This document shows, piece by piece, positions 6,397 through 59,795 of a DNA stretch of 64,000 nucleotides. Within the stretch, counting starts at the first letter, position 1. Each line of letters begins with the position of its first letter. The notes below the pieces were generated by a model that ran no database searches, had not been told where the DNA came from, and saw nothing but the letters and a program-made list of their open reading frames with translations. The DNA is from Escherichia phage vB_EcoM_CUA3, in sequence record PP410321; one strand, 5' to 3'. The position numbers and the translations under genes were made by a program.

Positions 6397-6663
6397 TCAT
6401 TGTAGGAATCTGGCTCCTTCTAGTGCATCATCAAGATTATCAAACTCGTCAACGTAATCAATACCGCCGACCTCATCTTTAGCGTATAGCCAGTACTGTT
6501 TAAATTCATATTCGATAATAAAGTGGTCACCCTCAATCTGGAGAACCGCATCACTATTAAATTGAACTGCATAACCAGTAAAGCGAACATCATTCAGGAG
6601 TTCTTCTTTCATAGCAATCATTTCCAAGTTTTTATCGTAATTAGAGAGTTTTATTTTAATCAT
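6397..6663 (-). CDS. hypothetical protein
   Basis: 88-aa ORF, stop/start overlap with neighbours. Confidence 0.4.
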   Translation of the reverse strand: MIKIKLSNYDKNLEMIAMKEELLNDVRFTGYAVQFNSDAVLQIEGDHFIIEYEFKQYWLYAKDEVGGIDYVDEFDNLDDALEGARFLQ

Positions 6664-6995
6664 TTCGCAGCCTTAACAATTTTAAGGTCAACGAATTTTT
6701 TCTTACGTTGATTCTTCATACGACGGATGGTTTTGTCTGTGATTTCACCTGGGTGCCAAGCTTTAGATTCGACACCAAAAGCGGCAACATCAAACTCATC
6801 AAGGATATATTGGACCAGGATTTCACGAATACCATTCTTACCGATTTTCTGGTCTTTAGAATGCATAATTGGTAACAGTTCAGCAACCCATTGGTCAAGA
6901 ACCTGAGGAGTTACAAAGCCAGTTTTCATCAGTTCGTTTACTTTATCGAAAGCGAAAGAGTTCAGTACGTTTTTAATAGCTTGTGACATAATAAT
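6660..6995 (-). CDS. hypothetical protein
   Basis: ORF beginning MSQAIK at ATG 6993-6995 with SD aggaaa; early promoter immediately upstream. Confidence 0.45.
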   Translation of the reverse strand: MIMSQAIKNVLNSFAFDKVNELMKTGFVTPQVLDQWVAELLPIMHSKDQKIGKNGIREILVQYILDEFDVAAFGVESKAWHPGEITDKTIRRMKNQRKKKFVDLKIVKAAK

Positions 6996-7030
6996 TTCCT
7001 CAGTTNNNNAATTTATAATCCGTAGGACCA

Positions 7031-7060
7031 TTATACTCCGGTCCCAAGAGTTTGTAAACT
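7031..7060 (-). promoter_or_regulatory. T4-type early promoter
   Basis: minus-strand GTTTAC (7055-7060), 18-nt spacer, TATAAT (7031-7036); followed by SD and ATG of the 6660..6995 gene. Confidence 0.55.
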
Positions 7061-7949: not shown

Positions 7950-8122
7950 AATTCAATTTCCTTGGCTATCGAACAAAATATGGCGCGGTCACAAATCATT
8001 TTAATATTAAGTTCAATTATGGTATACCACACGTCCAGGCTAGATATTTCAGTTACTAGAACAGCTTTGCCGTTGATTGAATAATACTGGTCGGCTTTAA
8101 TTTCTTTATCTTGGATAGTCAT
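7946..8122 (-). CDS. hypothetical small protein (58 aa)
   Basis: not in the ORF track (under 60 aa); ATG 8120-8122 preceded by SD gaggag and an early promoter; translates MTIQDKEIKADQYY...; stop overlaps next ATG. Confidence 0.35.
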   Translation of the reverse strand: MTIQDKEIKADQYYSINGKAVLVTEISSLDVWYTIIELNIKMICDRAIFCSIAKEIEL

Positions 8123-8151
8123 AATGTTCTCCTCATGTGTTGATAGGATAG

Positions 8152-9606: not shown

Positions 9607-10377
9607 NNNNNNNNNNNNNNNATAGAACGAACGGTGCAACCGTTTAAATTGACGAATCATCTTTTTGGTAGGACGGGTATACAACCCTATACAAGTGGCC
9701 ATAAACTGGTCAGTAGGACTTCCTTTGATAAGAAGTTTCCAGACCTTGTCACCGTTAAACTTTTCGGTATANNNNNNNNNNNNNNNNNNNNNNNNNNNNN
9801 NNNNNNNNNNNNNNNNNNNNNNNNNNNNNNNNNNNNNNNNNNNNNNNNNNNNNNNNNNNNNNNNNNNNNNNNNNNNNNNNNNNNNNNNNNNNNNNNNNNN
9901 NNNNNNNNNNNNNNNNNNNNNNNNNNNNNNNNNNNNNNNNNNNNNNNNNNNNNNNNNNNNNNNNNNNNNNNNNNNNNNNNNNNNNNNNNNNNNNNNNNNN
10001 NNNNNNNNNNNNNNNNNNNNNNNNNNNNNNNNNNNNNNNNNNNNNNNNNNNNNNNNNNNNNNNNNNNNNNNNNNNNNNNNNNNTTCATCAGAACGCCTTA
10101 TCAGCAAAGCGAAGTTGAGCTTCAAGCCAATGGATATAATCAGCTGCAGCNNNNNNNNNNNNNNNNNNNNNNNNNNNNNNNNNNNNNNNNNNNNNNNNNT
10201 CGTAAAGTGAATGTTCAATCAGACGGCCTTTATGTCGGCCAACTTCAATTTTGGTACTCATATCCAAACTCCATATCGATTAAATCATTGTTTGAAGGTT
10301 CATTATACTCTATTTCGGAATCGTTGTAAACCGGTTCCTCTGGCTCGGTAGTTTCCCACCGAGCGACATACCATGGC

Positions 10378-10686: not shown

Positions 10687-10946
10687 TTGAAATACGCTCG
10701 CAGTTGGTCAAACCCACCGATAGAAGTTCCGTCCGGAGCAAATACCTGAGGCATGGTCAAACCTACTTGAGATTCACGACCAAGAGCAGCCAGGAGTTCA
10801 GCAATCTTCTCATCATCAAATACGCCTTTTTCCGGCATCACGTTAATGAATTCGTAAGGTTGTTTCTTAACATCAAGCAGACGTTTGGCATTATCACAGA
10901 AAACACAACGGTGAATATTTGAATCGTAACCATAAACTTTAAACAT
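10683..10946 (-). CDS. nrdC: thioredoxin/glutaredoxin NrdC
   Basis: 87 aa, near-identical to T4 NrdC as I recall it (MFKVYGYDSNIHxCVxCDNAKRLL...MPQVFAPDG). Confidence 0.9.
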   Translation of the reverse strand: MFKVYGYDSNIHRCVFCDNAKRLLDVKKQPYEFINVMPEKGVFDDEKIAELLAALGRESQVGLTMPQVFAPDGTSIGGFDQLRAYFK

Positions 10947-11388: not shown

Positions 11389-12399
11389 TCATTTCAACAG
11401 CTCCAGAGCTTGTTCAAGACGGTCTAAACGATTGGTAGACTCTTCCCAAAGTTTCTTGGCGGCAGTATATTGACCGGTAAGTTTTTTGTTAATAGCAAGG
11501 GCATCTTTATACGCTTTTTCCAAAGCAACTATTTCTGGCAACTTAGATTTAGTAATTGGCGTAGGAGCCATGATAGGGCTATTCAAGTCATTAATCAAGT
11601 CTTCTAATGTAGCAGGCTCTTTATCAATGTTCACAATTTCCTCACATTTTTCTTGGTAAATTTCGGCATCAGTTTTTGGAACACGGCATTTGATTTCACG
11701 GACTGTTACTAAGACCTCATATCCTTTCCAGCCTAAGTGGTGTTTAACTTCTTGGGTCTCATATTTCTCTACTGTATCCATCAGAGCTAAAGCTTGTTCG
11801 ATAGTATTCAAGGTATCATAAGCAATATCTTGATACTTTACAACTTCCGCGTCATCTTTAGGTTTCCTATTAGGTGACCAAATAACAGAAATAATTGCTT
11901 TTCCTTTATAACTATTTGTTTTAATCATGCAATTCGCCATAGGGTGAATAGTACGGGAACCACCGGAAACTATGGTTTTAGAGGCCGCTTTGAGAATTAA
12001 TGCAGAGTTAGCCTTGAATTCGGTAACCCAACGTTGTGGAAATAAACTACTAGGGTCCATACCTTTAATTTTGATATAACTTTTTATGGTATCACCAAAC
12101 CATTTGTAGCTAACAGCATGGCTAGAACCCGGATATTTCTCTTTACCGAACTCAGAAAGGATGTCCTTATTGACCAGTCGCGAAAGCAGTCGAGAACCTT
12201 TAAATGTATTTACGATATCAGGAATAAACAAGCGACCCGCGATCTTTTCGATTTCGGCTTTGAAACAGCGCGATAATGCATCATCAATTTGGTCGACCCA
12301 TTTATTGATATTAGAAACTATTACCACATATGGGGTTAATGGAGGGGTGTTGGCAGTGATATACGTAGTAAAGGCATTGATGTATTCAGTACGAGTCAT
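11389..12399 (-). CDS. hypothetical protein
   Basis: 337-aa ORF from ATG 12397-12399 (MTRTEY), SD gaggag; coiled-coil C-terminus. Confidence 0.5.
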   Translation of the reverse strand: MTRTEYINAFTTYITANTPPLTPYVVIVSNINKWVDQIDDALSRCFKAEIEKIAGRLFIPDIVNTFKGSRLLSRLVNKDILSEFGKEKYPGSSHAVSYKWFGDTIKSYIKIKGMDPSSLFPQRWVTEFKANSALILKAASKTIVSGGSRTIHPMANCMIKTNSYKGKAIISVIWSPNRKPKDDAEVVKYQDIAYDTLNTIEQALALMDTVEKYETQEVKHHLGWKGYEVLVTVREIKCRVPKTDAEIYQEKCEEIVNIDKEPATLEDLINDLNSPIMAPTPITKSKLPEIVALEKAYKDALAINKKLTGQYTAAKKLWEESTNRLDRLEQALELLK

Positions 12400-12427
12400 G
12401 ATATTCTCCTCANNAGTTGATAGAAAG

Positions 12428-12457
12428 ATTATACTCCATCCATCCTTGGATGTAAAC
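12428..12457 (-). promoter_or_regulatory. T4-type early promoter
   Basis: GTTTAC (12452-12457), 18 nt, TATAAT (12428-12433). Confidence 0.55.
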
Positions 12458-12458
12458 A

Positions 12459-13364
12459 TTATTTTAGAGCTAATACTGCGGCGCGGAGCTTGTCACGCTG
12501 GAGTTCCATGTTCTTGATGCGAATCAATACGTCTTGAATACTCTTTTTCTCATCTTCGATCTGACCGTTTAAACGGTGGATTGATTCCTGGAGGTGGTCC
12601 TCATGATACTTCTCGATAGGTTTCATCGTAGGGTTAGTAACCACCATAGAATTATCAGGTGTAATTTTCCAATGATACGGTTTGGAATTGAATGGACTAG
12701 GCACCGCGGTGGTTTTGAATTTGTCATAGGCTGCATATTGGCCTACGCTATCACATGATACCGCAGAGGTAGAGATAGAGATACGTCGTTCCATTTGTGG
12801 GTCCTTTTGTTGGGATTGATAAGGGGCATAAGACAAAAGATATTCGCGAGTTAGTTTAACTCTGATATAAACTGCATCAGCTCGCCCAGAACAATCAGCA
12901 TATTCATCGGTTGTAACTTTATATGATTCTACTGCCTTAATACGAGTCATTGCTTCCCTGAATAAGGTTTCGAATGCTTCACGAAGGGCCTTATTGCCTT
13001 TTGAGGTGGGACGGAAACGAACTTGGATACCGTCAGGCAGAATATTAATGACTAGGTTACGAGCCGTAAAATTAATATTCTTGATATTAACAGGAACAGT
13101 AGCAATGCGTCCTGCAGTAGCCAAGAGGTCTTTGATATTAGCTCGCAATGTTGCACCAAACAGTTGGGCTGGGCTACGGCAATAGTCATTCAAAGAGCTG
13201 ATGTAAGTTCCTTTACGGCCTACACCATAAGTATAATTACCATTACAAATATGGCCAAAGTCTGCCAGCCGATCGATAGCGATACGACGTGTGGTATCAA
13301 AATCATATCGGGAATATTCTTTACGTGTTTTAATGTTCATATTAAAGTCCAAATAATTTTTCAT
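12459..13364 (-). CDS. hypothetical protein
   Basis: about 301-aa ORF, ATG 13362-13364. Confidence 0.45.
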   Translation of the reverse strand: MKNYLDFNMNIKTRKEYSRYDFDTTRRIAIDRLADFGHICNGNYTYGVGRKGTYISSLNDYCRSPAQLFGATLRANIKDLLATAGRIATVPVNIKNINFTARNLVINILPDGIQVRFRPTSKGNKALREAFETLFREAMTRIKAVESYKVTTDEYADCSGRADAVYIRVKLTREYLLSYAPYQSQQKDPQMERRISISTSAVSCDSVGQYAAYDKFKTTAVPSPFNSKPYHWKITPDNSMVVTNPTMKPIEKYHEDHLQESIHRLNGQIEDEKKSIQDVLIRIKNMELQRDKLRAAVLALK

Positions 13365-13557
13365 AGAATTTAGCAATAGGCCANNNNAAACANATCATAA
13401 NNNNNNCNAAGCAAAACAGAGGCCATACTAGTGTAATGAATACTGCATCATAGCTTGATTCAATTTCGATTGGATTCCAATCACCTGATTTATGAATGAT
13501 AAAGGTCGTCACGAATCCTAGCACAAAGTAAAGGAGAATAAAACCTACAATTTCCAT
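13342..13557 (-). CDS. hypothetical small membrane protein
   Basis: 71 aa with two hydrophobic segments; short N run inside. Confidence 0.35.
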   Translation of the reverse strand: MEIVGFILLYFVLGFVTTFIIHKSGDWNPIEIESSYDAVFITLVWPLFCXXXXMXCXXWPIAKFYEKLFGL

Positions 13558-13641
13558 ATTAACCTATAATGTTTGAGAAAATTAGCCACAGAACACCCGT
13601 GGCCACGATTACATATCCAAGAACGGCGAGCCATTCCATAA

Positions 13642-14484
13642 TTAATCCTTAAGAAGATTTAGGATATCGATATATTTTTGACGTTCAGCCTTAGCTTTAG
13701 CATTCAGACCAGAGAGTCGGAAAATCTCATCATCTTGTTGTTGGATTGTAACATTCAAGCAAGTAAGCAAATTGCTAAAATACTCGATTTGAGATTGATG
13801 CTTCTCATTGCTGCGCACTGGTACAGGTTCCGGTTTAGGAGCTTCTGAATGCTCTTNNNNNNNNNNNNNNNNNNNNNNNNNNNNNNNNNNNNNNNNNNNN
13901 NNNNNNNNNNNNNNNNNNNNNNNNNNNNNNNNNNNNNGTTCTAGTTCAGACAAAGCCAATCGAAGATGGAATTTCCAGTTGTCATATTGACAACCACTAA
14001 AAGTTGAAGTAAGATACTCGTTTTCGTTACCTGGTTGGTTGACAATATTAAAGATAATCCAATCGCCTGAACCATTAGTCTTAAATGGCATTTGCTTATC
14101 TTGACCTTTTGCAAGGCGAGCACCCAGTGCTAGTAAACGACGTTGGTTAGTACGAAGGTCTTTAACAACTTCATCAAATGACATCGCCGGGATTAAACGA
14201 CCGTAGAGGTCATAGCCTTTGTTATAATTTCTAAGAATAATTCTGGCGTTAGCACGAGTCAACATACCTGTCCTGTGAAGAGATTTCATGACTCGGTCTT
14301 CTAACGTAAACAAACCTTTAGTCTTGTCAAAGATTTTAGTGAATTCATCTNNNACAGTACAAACTTCAAACTTTTCCCACATCATNNNNNNNACCTTTTC
14401 AACCACTTCTTTATNNNTCGGAATACGACCAAATTTAATAACTTTTTTAACTTCAGAACGAATTTGATTAATTGCTTGTGACAT
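13642..14484 (-). CDS. hypothetical protein
   Basis: 280-aa ORF beginning MSQAI; shares an identical 26-nt initiation region with the gene at 6660..6995. Confidence 0.45.
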   Translation of the reverse strand: MSQAINQIRSEVKKVIKFGRIPXXKEVVEKXXXMMWEKFEVCTXXDEFTKIFDKTKGLFTLEDRVMKSLHRTGMLTRANARIILRNYNKGYDLYGRLIPAMSFDEVVKDLRTNQRRLLALGARLAKGQDKQMPFKTNGSGDWIIFNIVNQPGNENEYLTSTFSGCQYDNWKFHLRLALSELEXXXXXXXXXXXXXXXXXXXXXXXXXXXXEHSEAPKPEPVPVRSNEKHQSQIEYFSNLLTCLNVTIQQQDDEIFRLSGLNAKAKAERQKYIDILNLLKD

Positions 14485-14521
14485 AATAATTTCCTCAGTA
14501 AGTAATTAAGAACCTAGAACC

Positions 14522-14548
14522 ATTATACCATCCTTGGTATAAAGCGTT
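14522..14548 (-). promoter_or_regulatory. middle-promoter-like element (MotA-box-like GCTTTA, 12 nt, TATAAT)
   Basis: minus-strand cGCTTTAt-12 nt-TATAAT upstream of the 13642..14484 gene. Confidence 0.4.
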
Positions 14549-15072
14549 TATGCGAGAACCGTCTTTAAACGCTCTTCAAATTTCTGAAGCAGAGCTTGGC
14601 GTTCAGCTCGTTGTGATTTGTACTGCTCGATACGACCTGAAGTGAGGGCGTACTGTTCGTTTACTGATTCCCGCATAAATTCAGGAATCTCTTTACAAGC
14701 TTTGATTTCGTCAAACTTATCAATAACCGCTTGTTCCTCGGCAATCAGATTATCGAAATAAGCGATATCCGATTTAACGTTTGCCAGGTCAGATTCAGTA
14801 GGCATTAAACGTTTGTTACGTTCAGCTTGATAAGCCTGGTTGGTTTCACGACTCCAGTGGAGAGTACGTTTTTTGTTAGTGTTTTTATAGAGCTCTACAA
14901 TACCAACTGAATCGATGATAGCAATCCAGTTCCAACGGCTTTTGTAAATCTCTCCTCCAGATACGGTAATCTCATTACCACAAGCAACGTCGTTAAAGAA
15001 CTTGCTTTGTTTTTCAGATTTGAAATTACCGTTGTTAAAATTAATCAGTGAAAAAATATCTTTAGCGTTCAT
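14548..15072 (-). CDS. hypothetical protein
   Basis: 174-aa ORF, ATG 15070-15072, SD ggaggt. Confidence 0.45.
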   Translation of the reverse strand: MNAKDIFSLINFNNGNFKSEKQSKFFNDVACGNEITVSGGEIYKSRWNWIAIIDSVGIVELYKNTNKKRTLHWSRETNQAYQAERNKRLMPTESDLANVKSDIAYFDNLIAEEQAVIDKFDEIKACKEIPEFMRESVNEQYALTSGRIEQYKSQRAERQALLQKFEERLKTVLA

Positions 15073-15098
15073 GATAACCTCCAGTAGTTGATAGGTCT

Positions 15099-15127
15099 AT
15101 AGTATCATTTCTACTGGAGATGTAAAC
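15099..15127 (-). promoter_or_regulatory. T4-type early promoter
   Basis: GTTTAC (15122-15127), 17 nt, TACTAT (15099-15104). Confidence 0.55.
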
Positions 15128-19469: not shown

Positions 19470-19920
19470 TATGCTTTCAACTCATTAAGATACTCAACCA
19501 AGGCTGCTTTAGAGTTAGCCAAATCCCGTTTACACTGCTCTATTCCGGAATACGAATAGCCTTCGCAATATTCAACAGCTAGGTCATTGGATGCGTTTTC
19601 AATGTGCTGGGCGAGTTTGATAATTTTCTCAATCTGTTCAGTAGTTAACATAANNNNNNNNNNNNNNNNNNNNNNNNNNNNNNNNNNNNNNNNNNNNNNN
19701 NNNNNNNNNNNNNNNNNNNNNNNNNNNNNNNNNNNNNNNNNNNNNNNNNNNNNNNNNNNNNNNNNNNNNNNNNNNNNNNNNNNNNNNNNNNNNNNNNNNN
19801 NNNNNNNNNNNNNNNNNNNNNNNNNNNNNNNNNNNNNNNNNNNNNNNNNNNNNNNNNNNNNNNNNNNNNNNNNNNNNNNNNNNNNNNNNNNNACTNTTCT
19901 CCTCATTAGTTGATAGGTCT

Positions 19921-19949
19921 ATAGTATCACGTTCCTAGAGGATGTAAAC
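19921..19949 (-). promoter_or_regulatory. T4-type early promoter
   Basis: GTTTAC (19944-19949), 17 nt, TACTAT (19921-19926); drives a masked downstream gene. Confidence 0.55.
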
Positions 19950-24015: not shown

Positions 24016-24043
24016 TTTGTAATCTCCTGTAGTTGATAGGTCT

Positions 24044-24072
24044 ATAGTACCACGCCTACAGGAGATGTAAAC
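24044..24072 (-). promoter_or_regulatory. T4-type early promoter for regB
   Basis: GTTTAC (24067-24072), 17 nt, TACTAT (24044-24049); 9-bp inverted repeat pairs the SD with the spacer. Confidence 0.6.
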
Positions 24073-25898: not shown

Positions 25899-26303
25899 AG
25901 CCTTACCATAATGTTTGTACCAGGTAGGGCGTTGTGCAATTTTTTCATCCAAACGGGCTTGTGAAATAGCGATAGAAGCTTCGTGAGGAACATAATCACC
26001 ACGGAATTCCTGAGGAATGTCGCTAATATCCTGGACCGTAGTATCCTTGATATTAAAACCACGTTTTAAACATTCGGCTATAAGCTCAATTTGGCGTTTA
26101 CGTAAGAACTCTAGCTTATCGTAAAAGAACGTAACATGACCTGTGCCAAGGATAAAAGTAGGACTGATTTTGAAATCACGAACACGTTTACCATTAGCCA
26201 CATGCTTACGAACTGCACCGAAAACACGGGGTAATTCACGATATTCGGCCATAAGATGTTGGTCAGCCAATTCAGATACTAAGGTAAGGTTGATACGAGT
26301 CAT
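25887..26303 (-). CDS. denV: endonuclease V, pyrimidine-dimer DNA glycosylase (DenV)
   Basis: 138 aa, high similarity to T4 endonuclease V ([27 protein letters not shown]...). Confidence 0.9.
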
Positions 26304-26305
26304 TT

Positions 26306-26758
26306 TTAATCTCCTGTAGTTGATAGGTTTATAGTATCATGCCTACAGGAGATGTAAACNNNNNNNNNNNNNNNNNNNNNNNNNNNNNNNNNNNNNNNNN
26401 NNNNNNNNNNNNNNNNNNNNNNNNNNNNNNNNNNNNNNNNNNNNNNNNNNNNNNNNNNNNNNNNNNNNNNNNNNNNNNNNNNNNNNNNNNNNNNNNNNNN
26501 NNNNNNNNNNNNNNNNNNNNNNNNNNNNNNNNNNNNNNNNNNNNNNNNNNNNNNNNNNNNNNNNNNNNNNNNNNNNNNNNNNNNNNNNNNNNNNNNNNNN
26601 NNNNNNNNNNNNNNNNNNNNNNNNNNNNNNNNNNNNNNNNNNNNNNNNNNNNNNNNNNNNNNNNNNNNNNNNNNNNNNNNNNNNNNNNNNNNNNNNNNNN
26701 NNNNNNNNNNNNNNNNNNNNNNNNNNNNNNNNNNNNNAAATTCATTGTAAGTTTTCAT
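26306..26758 (-). CDS. internal protein with capsid-targeting leader (ipII/ipIII-type), body masked
   Basis: N-terminus MKTYNEF; located between denV and e as the T4 ipII/ipIII genes. Confidence 0.55.
26331..26359 (-). promoter_or_regulatory. T4-type early promoter for denV
   Basis: GTTTAC (26354-26359), 17 nt, TACTAT (26331-26336); perfect 9-bp inverted repeat ctcctgtag/ctacaggag. Confidence 0.6.
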
Positions 26759-30176: not shown

Positions 30177-30213
30177 TTTATTCTCCATTTCACTCTGTTG
30201 TTTTGATAGGTCT

Positions 30214-30242
30214 ATAGTATCACACCTATAGACCTTGTACAC
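30214..30242 (-). promoter_or_regulatory. early-promoter-like element (GTGTAC variant)
   Basis: GTGTAC (30237-30242), 17 nt, TACTAT (30214-30219); same repeat family as the other early promoters. Confidence 0.45.
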
Positions 30243-31415: not shown

Positions 31416-31664
31416 TTAAATTTCAGCAACGTAATCGTTATGCAATTCCCACATATCATCAGAATTATTCTTAATGATAGGAATTATCTCATTAGAGATT
31501 TCTTCTGCATAAGGGTCATTGATACAGTGAGCATCTTCAAAACGAACACCGTAATCAGACTTCTTATAGGCAAAGCCATAAATCTTTTTAAACTTGGCAC
31601 GACTAATGCGCACCGGCTCATCAGACTTATCAGACTTATCAGACAGTGGAGAGTAATACCACAT
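31416..31664 (-). CDS. hypothetical protein
   Basis: 82-aa ORF containing an SDKSDKSD repeat. Confidence 0.35.
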   Translation of the reverse strand: MWYYSPLSDKSDKSDEPVRISRAKFKKIYGFAYKKSDYGVRFEDAHCINDPYAEEISNEIIPIIKNNSDDMWELHNDYVAEI

Positions 31665-31708
31665 AATGTTCTCCTCATGTTTGTGTAAGGTAATAGTAAC
31701 ACAAGTTT

Positions 31709-58349: not shown

Positions 58350-59795
58350 CGTACTGATGTTAATGAGTTAAAAACCATAGTTGGTGCTAGTTCANNNNNN
58401 NNNNNNNNNNNNNNNNNNNNNNNNNNNNNNNNNNNNNNNNNNNNNNNNNNNNNNNNNNNNNNNNNNNNNNNNNNNNNNNNNNNNNNNNNNNNNNNNNNNN
58501 NNNNNNNNNNNNNNNNNNNNNNNNNNNNNNNNNNNNNNNNNNNNNNNNNNNNNNNNNNNNNNNNNNNNNNNNNNNNNNNNNNNNNNNNNNNNNNNNNNNN
58601 NNNNNNNNNNNNNNNNNNNNNNNNNNNNNNNNNNNNNNNNNNNNNNNNNNNNNNNNNNNNNNNNNNNNNNNNNNNNNNNNNNNNNNNNNNNNNNNNNNNN
58701 NNNNNNNNNNNNNNNNNNNNNNNNNNNNNNNNNNNNNNNNNNNNNNNNNNNNNNNNNNNNNNNNNNNNNNNNNNNNNNNNNNNNNNNNNNNNNNNNNNNN
58801 NNNNNNNNNNNNNNNNNNNNNNNNNNNNNNNNNNNNNNNNNNNNNNNNNNNNNNNNNNNNNNNNNNNNNNNNNNNNNNNNNNNNNNNNNNNNNNNNNNNN
58901 NNNNNNNNNNNNNNNNNNNNNNNNNNNNNNNNNNNNNNNNNNNNNNNNNNNNNNNNNNNNNNNNNNNNNNNNNNNNNNNNNNNNNNNNNNNNNNNNNNNN
59001 NNNNNNNNNNNNNNNNNNNNNNNNNNNNNNNNNNNNNNNNNNNNNNNNNNNNNNNNNNNNNNNNNNNNNNNNNNNNNNNNNNNNNNNNNNCCTATTAAAG
59101 CCGATATAACCAAGAATAAAGGTGATATCGTTACTTTAACTGGACGAGTAGCAGCTAATGAAGGCGAAATTACTGATATTAAANTNGATACCGCNAAAAT
59201 AGCTCCTTTAACAACTNNNNNNNNNNNNNNNNNNNNNNNNNNNNNNNNNNNNNNNNNNNNNNNNNNNNNTGTTAAAGTCGAATCCGATAAAGTAGAAGGA
59301 ATTGATACTCGNNNNNNNNNNNNNNNNNNNNNNNNNNNNNNNNNNNNNNNNNNNNNNNNNNNNNNNNNNNNNNNNNNNNNNNNNNNNNNNNNNNNNNNNN
59401 NNNNNNNNNNNNNNNNNNNNNNNNNNNNNNNNNNNNNNNNNNNNNNNNNNNNNNNNNNNNNNNNNNNTGAAGGTAAAGTTAGTACTCTTGAAACGGGCTT
59501 AGCCGCCGTTAAAGTTGAATCGGATAAAGTNGNAGGAATNAATACCCGTTTAGGTACGGTCGAAGGTAAAGTTGGTACTCTTGAAACAGGTTTGGCTGCA
59601 GTTAAAGTTGAATCTGATAAAGTGGCAGGATTAACTACTCGCTTATCTGCGGCTGAAGCTAAAATCACTGCCTTAGAAACAGAATTAGCTAAACGTCCAC
59701 CGGTGGCTCCTGCTGCAGACGGACTTCCGTATGTTCTGGTTGATAACGCATGGGTATTATTGTCTGATTTTGTGACTTTAAATCCAGCACCATAA
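58350..59795 (+). CDS. wac: fibritin (whisker/neck) with C-terminal foldon, 5' boundary masked
   Basis: coiled-coil heptads and C-terminal ...GLPYVLVDNAWVLLSDFV resembling the T4 fibritin foldon ([27 protein letters not shown]). Confidence 0.75.
   Translation, partial: RTDVNELKTIVGASSXXXXXXXXXXXXXXXXXXXXXXXXXXXXXXXXXXXXXXXXXXXXXXXXXXXXXXXXXXXXXXXXXXXXXXXXXXXXXXXXXXXXXXXXXXXXXXXXXXXXXXXXXXXXXXXXXXXXXXXXXXXXXXXXXXXXXXXXXXXXXXXXXXXXXXXXXXXXXXXXXXXXXXXXXXXXXXXXXXXXXXXXXXXXXXXXXXXXXXXXXXXXXXXXXXXXXXXXXXXXXXXXXXXXXXXXPIKADITKNKGDIVTLTGRVAANEGEITDIKXDTXKIAPLTTXXXXXXXXXXXXXXXXXXVKVESDKVEGIDTXXXXXXXXXXXXXXXXXXXXXXXXXXXXXXXXXXXXXXXXXXXXXXXXXXXXXEGKVSTLETGLAAVKVESDKXXGXNTRLGTVEGKVGTLETGLAAVKVESDKVAGLTTRLSAAEAKITALETELAKRPPVAPAADGLPYVLVDNAWVLLSDFVTLNPAP
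59267..59658 (+). repeat. tandem 96-nt (32-aa) coiled-coil repeats inside fibritin
   Basis: EGKVxTLETGLAAVKVESDKVxGxxTRL repeated at 59467-59562 and 59563-59658, partial copy at 59267-59311. Confidence 0.7.

Follow-up and report, generated by a model that had tools for sequence, protein, structure and literature searches.

Two genes of a T4-like phage, about 7.5 kb apart, open with the same 26 nucleotides, a stretch that runs from the SD sequence across the start codon into the first codons of two unrelated proteins. The question raised by this arrangement is what the identity means. Such a block could be a translational operator shared by the two messages, it could be the trace of recombination between the two start regions, or it could be a likeness that two ordinary ribosome-binding sites have each reached on their own. 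The sections below take up the sequence and its setting, the history of each copy among related phages, and the explanations that have to be weighed against each other.

The repeated block and the genes it opens

The window (the whole 64-kb stretch of DNA that was analyzed) belongs to a JS98/JS10-like Dhakavirus (Straboviridae) and is about 92-94% identical to published genomes. Gene names (55.2, nrdC.6) were taken from the JS10 annotation. Many runs of the window are masked with N, including 7006-7009, 14351-14353, 14386-14392 and 9700-10090; the first of these places 4 N directly upstream of the 55.2 copy of the block, and JS10 sequence was substituted where the mask interfered. The features needed for the argument are as follows.

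6660-6989, minus strand: gene 55.2, 109 aa (DUF7570, phrog_1475), homologue of T4 gp55.2
6979-7004, minus strand: block copy 1, the 55.2 start region, with SD GAGG at 7001-6998, ATG at 6989-6987 and codons 2-4 TCA CAA GC; the 31/32 identity reaches 6973
7025-7059, minus strand: early sigma-70-type promoter of 55.2, with -35 GTTTACA and -10 TATAAT (7035-7030); a hairpin GGACC/GGTCC (7025-7045) lies over the -10
13642-14484, minus strand: gene nrdC.6, 280 aa (phrog_2257), no known function
14474-14499, minus strand: block copy 2, the nrdC.6 start region, with SD GAGG at 14496-14493 and ATG at 14484-14482; the 31/32 identity reaches 14468
14522-14546, minus strand: middle-type promoter of nrdC.6, with -10 TATAAT (14527-14522) and a MotA-box-like cGCTTTA (14546-14540) right after the nrdC.8 stop codon

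Read on the plus strand, the block is GCTTGTGACATAATAATTTCCTCAGT, of which the window has exactly two copies, direct repeats with 0 mismatches at 6979-7004 and 14474-14499. The initial annotation had noticed this identity correctly, though its coordinates (6970-6995 and 14467-14492) were shifted by 9 and 7 nt. A search of the window that allowed 3 mismatches found no third copy, and the number of matches expected by chance, estimated from 100 dinucleotide shuffles, is 0. When the comparison is extended, 31 of 32 positions agree (6973-7004 versus 14468-14499, repeat family D7). Both genes are encoded on the minus strand, where the block DNA is ACTGAGGAAATTATT-ATG-TCACAAGC and the corresponding RNA is ACUGAGGAAAUUAUU-AUG-UCACAAGC. 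It contains an SD sequence GAGG separated by 8 A/T nucleotides from the ATG, after which S, Q and A are encoded, giving the N-terminus MSQA(I). At both sites GAGG stands 8 nt 5' of the ATG, and the earlier description of the block as a translation-initiation region (SD, ATG, MSQAI start) is thereby confirmed. Each of the two reading frames opened by the block has orthologues in JS10, T4, SP18 and Mosigvirus. One specific element can be set aside at once. The RegB endoribonuclease acts on GGAG in the SD region of early mRNA (PMC3014915), and the block contains GAGG and lacks GGAG, which rules out a RegB site.

T4 gp55.2 is a non-essential, fitness-raising inhibitor of host topoisomerase I that is toxic if over-expressed (PMC4396842). 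The view that 55.2 and NrdC.6 are unrelated proteins holds up: BLASTP gave no alignment between the two, hhalign gave a probability of 2.9% with columns 1-8 alone aligned, the two fall in different PHROGs, and Pfam DUF7570 matches 55.2 only. These comparisons bear directly on the idea that the genes share an ancient 5' module, in the form of paralogous N-termini or a duplicated start cassette, with the block as its remnant. Both proteins do begin MSQAI(K/N), and the eight columns aligned by hhalign are the kind of signal that this idea predicts. However, upstream of the block each leader has its orthologues at a different locus, and taken with the protein comparisons this makes a common module highly improbable; paralogy of the proteins themselves is effectively refuted.

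A separate likeness concerns the neighborhood of nrdC.6. In translation, nrdC.4, a 305-aa ORF at 12459-13376, nrdC.6 and nrdC.8 (window 11389-15072) have similar Leu/Lys/Glu-rich, coiled-coil-looking C-termini (...LDRLEQALELLK, ...LRAAVLALK, ...YIDILNLLKD and ...FEERLKTVLA), which may represent a common C-terminal module or a paralogous family. Another repeat, at 59469-59654, consists of two tandem 93-nt in-frame copies that are 80% identical (D13) and encode an EGKV(S/G)TLETGLAAVKVESDKV-like heptad-rich sequence; judging from this translation, it is probably part of a fibrous or coiled-coil structural gene.

Promoters and leaders

Different promoters stand in front of the two copies, an early one for 55.2 and a MotA-type one for nrdC.6, as the initial annotation had proposed. 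The 55.2 promoter is TTTACA-17-TATAAT, an 11/12 match as scored on the JS10 orthologue, the window having 4 N beside the site. No sigma-70 -35 hexamer was found at the nrdC.6 promoter. Its TATAAT is preceded, 12 nt upstream, by cGCTTTA, which agrees in position and core with a MotA box as known from T4 middle promoters. Inspection of the sequence alone also shows an inverted repeat, TATACCA/TGGTATA (14524-14541), lying over the nrdC.6 -10.

The hairpin over the 55.2 -10 shows compensatory changes at 4 of its 6 stem pairs among 8 genera-level variants. It is kept as a terminator-like hairpin in T4 and in contig L027, where the promoter is lost. Sites orthologous to it (7025-7045 in the window) were seen in L003-L042, L002 and L059, and in many other genera it is replaced by a TTTGCTATAG...CTATGTCAAA element with an inverted repeat of its own.

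The leaders themselves were folded from the predicted transcription start to +40. Their minimum free energies are -3.8 and -3.7 kcal/mol, less stable than those of shuffled sequences (z +1.07 and +1.48). With folds weaker than shuffles and no helix in common, an RNA structure shared by the two leaders is ruled out, and unstructured leaders fit an accessible ribosome-binding site.

How unusual is the pair

The window offers its own null model, in the form of 96 candidate start regions (ATG, an SD-like tetramer before it, at least 40 codons after it) that make up 4,560 pairs. Identity over the 15 nt upstream of the ATG occurs in one other pair (8122 and 31664), and identity over 13 nt in three pairs. 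Downstream of the ATG, every other pair among the 4,560 has at most 7 nt in common, and at most 3 N-terminal residues. The 55.2/nrdC.6 pair is thus the extreme of the null, mainly because the first four codons coincide too. When the two halves of the block are taken as independent, coincidences of 15+3+8 nt are expected at about 1e-4 to 5e-4 pairs in the window and about 1e-3 to 1e-2 per genome. On these figures chance alone is not a comfortable account of the 26-nt identity, and either a copying event or shared selection could be the source of the excess. A wider sample, 22,601 pairs taken from 44 T4-like loci, has 24, 19 and 18 nt as its next longest runs of identity in start regions; long identical start regions are rare but recurrent in T4-like genomes.

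Several individual cases of such sharing deserve mention. A second pair of unrelated genes in the window has an identical 19-nt start region, ACATGAGGAGAACATTATG, at 8120-8138 and 31662-31680, and the 16-nt TGAGGAAAATATTATG is common to the start regions of three genes at about 29949, 31214 and 31394. On an unrelated T4-like contig (L040), adjacent small genes at 10877 and 11118 have at least 24 nt of identical start region, AGAACTTGAGGAATATTTGAATGA, which is possibly a local tandem duplication.

Distribution and ancestry of the two copies

Looking for the block in other T4-like genomes was the check that had been suggested at the outset. Both genes are present in several hundred complete Straboviridae genomes. 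With CAR allowed at the third codon, the exact block is present in six genomes among 2.9 million viral contigs, all of them Dhakavirus with 2 copies each, and JS10 also carries it; among the same contigs it was found in no other group. Comparison of the two sites within single genomes gives 25-26 identical positions of 26 in Dhakavirus, 17 in Gaprivervirus SP18, 15 in Mosigvirus F31, and 10 in both T4 and AV120. By this measure the two sites are not co-conserved as a pair outside Dhakavirus.

The history of the 55.2 copy was traced through 40 IMG/VR loci encoding gp55.2 relatives (56-100% protein identity). In most genera the protein begins MSQAIKNVLN behind an SD region of the ACTGAGGAAA type, and on this comparison MSQAIKNVLN is ancestral and the T4 N-terminus, MTIQIKN, is derived. 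Comparison with T4 had raised the idea that 55.2 got its start from nrdC.6; the 40 loci rule it out. Of the 26 block positions, 20-24 are retained even in orthologues whose proteins are 56-65% identical, and MSQAIKNV is invariant in most. Their differences are confined to the spacer (ATTATT, AATAAT, AATACT, ATTGCT and others) and to synonymous third positions, which across genera include TCA/T/C/G, CAA/G, GCT/A and ATT/C. This variation matches selection on the SD and at the protein level, not an RNA element read base by base. Farther upstream, the 55.2 leader (GGATAATAAAATTTTAA) is orthologous across genera, T4 included.

NrdC.6 relatives were searched both as a single sequence and as an alignment, which brought in Dhaka-, Gapriver- and Tequatrovirus-type contigs, with Mosigvirus added from GenBank. 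From the end of nrdC.8 through the middle promoter to the leader, the sequence can be aligned among Dhakavirus, Gaprivervirus (SP18, L049), Mosigvirus (F31) and Tequatrovirus (T4, AV120), and the promoter downstream of nrdC.8 is about 96% identical to that of T4 over 46 nt (window 14485-14547 versus L002 14304-14358). In T4 the orthologous promoter drives nrdC.7, which encodes a predicted membrane protein. This gene is absent from Dhaka-, Gapriver- and Mosigvirus, where the same promoter drives nrdC.6 directly. The start region of T4 nrdC.7, (C/T)TGAG-ATTATTATG, equals the UTR half of the block minus GAA. In SP18 the nrdC.6 start is ATTGAGGAAATTATTATGTCACAAGCAATTAAT, one base off the window, and other Gapriver-type contigs have the spacer AATAAT. 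Tequatrovirus nrdC.6 itself starts ATGTCAGTAG(T/C)AATTAAT (MSVVIN or MSVAIN), 2-3 nt from the coding half of the block. Given that the leader is orthologous to the T4 nrdC.7 leader and that the Tequatrovirus nrdC.6 start is so close, the nrdC.6 copy, like that of 55.2, consists of sequence that belongs to its own locus in both halves.

Within Dhakavirus, the window, JS10 and JS98 have CAA as codon 3 of nrdC.6, and five other genomes have CAG. All 8 genomes compared have an unchanged 15-nt UTR half at each of the two sites, and the leader just upstream of it varies; such invariance is predicted by selection on the SD and spacer, and equally by an operator. Recent duplication of a whole promoter-leader cassette was also considered and is ruled out: upstream of ACTGAGG there is only AT-rich background similarity between the two loci, and each leader aligns with its own positional orthologues.

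Possible recombination between the start regions

A recombination junction had been put forward as one source of the identity. In its most specific form, a short-tract ectopic gene conversion, or a crossover of the PeSL type, would have acted on the two start regions before Dhakavirus and Gaprivervirus diverged, and the identity would be a neutral scar. Prior microhomology (..TGAGGAAA.. and ATGTCA..AGC.ATTAA) could have seeded the conversion, which would make the nrdC.6 start identical to the 55.2 start. The direction is reasonable, in that the 55.2 MSQAI is clearly ancestral, and what sets nrdC.6 apart from its Tequatrovirus orthologue, two bases (GT to CA) and the length of the spacer, is exactly what makes it identical to 55.2. 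A conversion from 55.2 to nrdC.6 that brought in these two bases and the longer spacer would remove the statistical discomfort of a 26-nt coincidence that is improbable if the halves are independent. That said, the UTR half of nrdC.6 (..TGAG..ATTATTATG) already stands behind the orthologous promoter in T4, AV120 and SP18, so a 55.2 donor is not needed for it. Nor is there a sign of ongoing homogenization, as the copies still differ at +12 (GCT versus GCA) and in CAA/CAG. We consider such a conversion or crossover unlikely.

The setting of the two sites also has to be considered. PeSL (promoter-early stem-loop) cassettes were described by Arbiol et al. (2010, PMC2839356). In RB49 and phi1, cassettes of this kind have been shown to cross over in the interval from the -10 to the ATG (PMC2839356). 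The 55.2 site resembles these cassettes in having a sigma-70-like early promoter, a covarying stem-loop over the -10, and the SD and ATG at the 3' end. The nrdC.6 site resembles them in its inverted repeat over the -10 and in lying at a junction of gene presence and absence relative to T4, where nrdC.7 is missing at exactly this point. Both copies are therefore placed at the 3' ends of promoter/stem-loop cassettes, which counts in favor of an exchange. The likeness has limits, however. The nrdC.6 promoter is of the MotA type, not early, and the block covers the SD-ATG end and the codons rather than the promoter and stem-loop part by which PeSL homology is defined. Moreover, homology extends into neither flank, no flank has been exchanged between the loci, and no shuffling between the 55.2 and nrdC.6 cassettes was observed. 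Loss of the 7.2-7.9 kb interval between the copies is seen in no genome, and the 8 Dhakavirus genomes show neither deletion nor rearrangement there. What survives of the suggested junction is the missing nrdC.7 and the cassette-like position of both sites; the swapped flank that a junction implies is not found.

Other repeats in the window look more like classical PeSL cassettes. Five 57-nt repeats (D4), 63-93% identical to a reference copy, lie at 15071-15127, 19893-19949, 24016-24072, 26303-26359 and 30186-30242. On the minus strand they read GTTTAC-ATCTCCTGTAG...TATAGACCTATCAA...CTACAGGAGAT, which amounts to an early promoter whose -10 region lies within an inverted repeat. Judged by sequence, they resemble the classical PeSL cassettes known from the hyperplastic nrdC-tk region, and more clearly so than do the sites of the block.

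A possible RegA operator at the start sites

The initial annotation suggested a shared translational operator, for example one for a RegA-type repressor. RegA is in fact the most plausible candidate for such an operator, and the site would cover the SD and AUG. RegA would then shut off both mRNAs together once middle-phase proteins accumulate, a useful arrangement given that gp55.2 is toxic at high dose. In JS10 regA is annotated just beyond the position of the window edge.

RegA sites in T4 overlap or abut the AUG and are A+U-rich with a 5' A tract, showing neither structure nor a clear consensus (PMC3014915). Selection in vitro (SELEX) gave the consensus aaAAUUGUUAUGUAA for the T4 protein, and RB69 RegA selects AAUAAUAAUAAnA (PMC3014915). 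Recognition is degenerate and extends to about 30 different mRNAs, and as of the 2010 review there was no structure of a RegA-RNA complex (PMC3014915).

Measured against this description, the block (GGAAAUUAUUAUGU) has the form of a RegA site, since it lies at the SD-AUG and is A+U-rich, unstructured and provided with a 5' A tract, features loose enough to be shared by many start regions. In these respects it resembles the T4 and RB69 operators of gene 44, rIIB and dexA. The AUG-anchored sequence GAAAUUAUUAUGUCA within the block agrees with the T4 SELEX consensus at 12 of 15 positions, the highest score of the 96 start regions of the window and of 20 JS10 genes. A further point of contact is gene 44, a classic RegA target in T4. 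Its start region in JS10, CTGAGGAAATTAATATG, is identical to the UTR half of the block plus ATG at 17 of 18 positions. That JS10 carries regA, that both leaders lack structure and that over-expressed gp55.2 is toxic (PMC4396842) would all suit this kind of control, and binding of RegA to the block is plausible from its sequence.

The difficulty lies in the identity itself. Degenerate recognition of the kind described for RegA neither needs nor explains 26 identical nucleotides (PMC3014915). The two sites are not co-conserved outside one genus, the identity of the candidate operators being lost in T4, RB69-like and SP18 phages, and synonymous positions within the block drift. The SELEX score, too, turns out to carry little weight. 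JS10 orthologues of known T4 targets score 5-10 of 15 (regA 8, 62 5, 44 9, 45 9, rpbA 10), within the range of other genes, and SELEX similarity was dropped as a predictor of RegA sites because it does not discriminate the orthologues of known targets from other genes. No RegA control of 55.2 or nrdC.6 is reported in PMC3014915 or PMC4396842. A RegA operator that accounts for both copies, together with the joint shut-off it would bring about, thus seems doubtful, somewhat more so than a conversion event. The comparative data lend no support to a dedicated operator shared by the pair as originally pictured, in that the pair identity is confined to Dhakavirus, synonymous positions vary, and each half is locus-specific.

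A variant of the RegA explanation groups the block with the near-identical gene 44 start as a putative class of high-affinity operators, in which spacer variants would track the RegA specificity of each lineage. The spacer AUUAUU of Dhakavirus resembles the T4 SELEX motif, and AAUAAU, present at Mosigvirus 55.2 and some Gaprivervirus nrdC.6 genes, resembles the UAA repeats selected by RB69 RegA. As a proposal that builds further on these resemblances, it is more speculative still.

Probably two ordinary initiation regions

The explanation we prefer, with a probability of roughly 0.6, is that the block consists of two ordinary near-consensus initiation regions of the T4 type, and that their identity is a Dhakavirus-specific coincidence of locus-native SD and spacer sequences with N-terminal codons. 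On the unstructured leader of each message, GAGG would pair with the 3' end of 16S rRNA, and the 8-nt A/U-rich spacer leads on to the AUG and to first codons that are likewise A/U-rich. One kind of signal would serve both pre-replicative messages, that of 55.2 from its early promoter and that of nrdC.6 from its middle promoter.

The state found in the Dhakavirus lineage would have been put together from pieces that are each native to their own locus. On the 55.2 side, the leader, SD and MSQAIKNVLN N-terminus are an inheritance common to many T4-like genera. On the nrdC.6 side, the leader (C/T)TGAG..ATTATTATG is part of the conserved middle-promoter cassette 3' of nrdC.8, and MS(Q/V)AIN is the native NrdC.6 N-terminus. 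SD/spacer selection and protein-level selection would suffice to maintain these pieces, and no factor reading the 26-mer as a unit would be required. The locations of the copies, the orthology of their parts and the pattern of variation are direct observations. For the coincidence that is left over, we infer chance or convergence on the consensus rather than copying.

Compared with the canonical T4-type initiation region, the two sites show the same SD GAGG 8 nt before the AUG, the same A/U-rich spacer and first codons, and the same unstructured leader. Near-identical variants occur at many genes of the window, for example TGAGGAAAATATTATG at three of them. There is no difference in kind; the one unusual feature is an identity as long as 26 nt, which the copies reach because their first four codons coincide as well. 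No element at these sites falls outside known kinds.

Implications

Should the block act as a RegA site after all, the RegA regulon would gain two targets, one of them an inhibitor of host topoisomerase I with toxic effects at high dose, and studies of RegA-RNA recognition would gain a natural sequence near the SELEX optimum. If the high-affinity class exists, gp55.2 and NrdC.6 would be co-repressed with replication genes. The two block copies, as 26-nt direct repeats with 7.5 kb between them, also offer a potential substrate for deletions or mini-circles across the gene 49-nrdC segment.

As found, the block matters little in itself. Its broader meaning is that consensus translation signals, together with conserved N-termini, can produce long stretches of identical start-site sequence in T4-like genomes. 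Scans for repeats will pick up blocks of this sort, and these should therefore be checked against orthologues before they are called operators.
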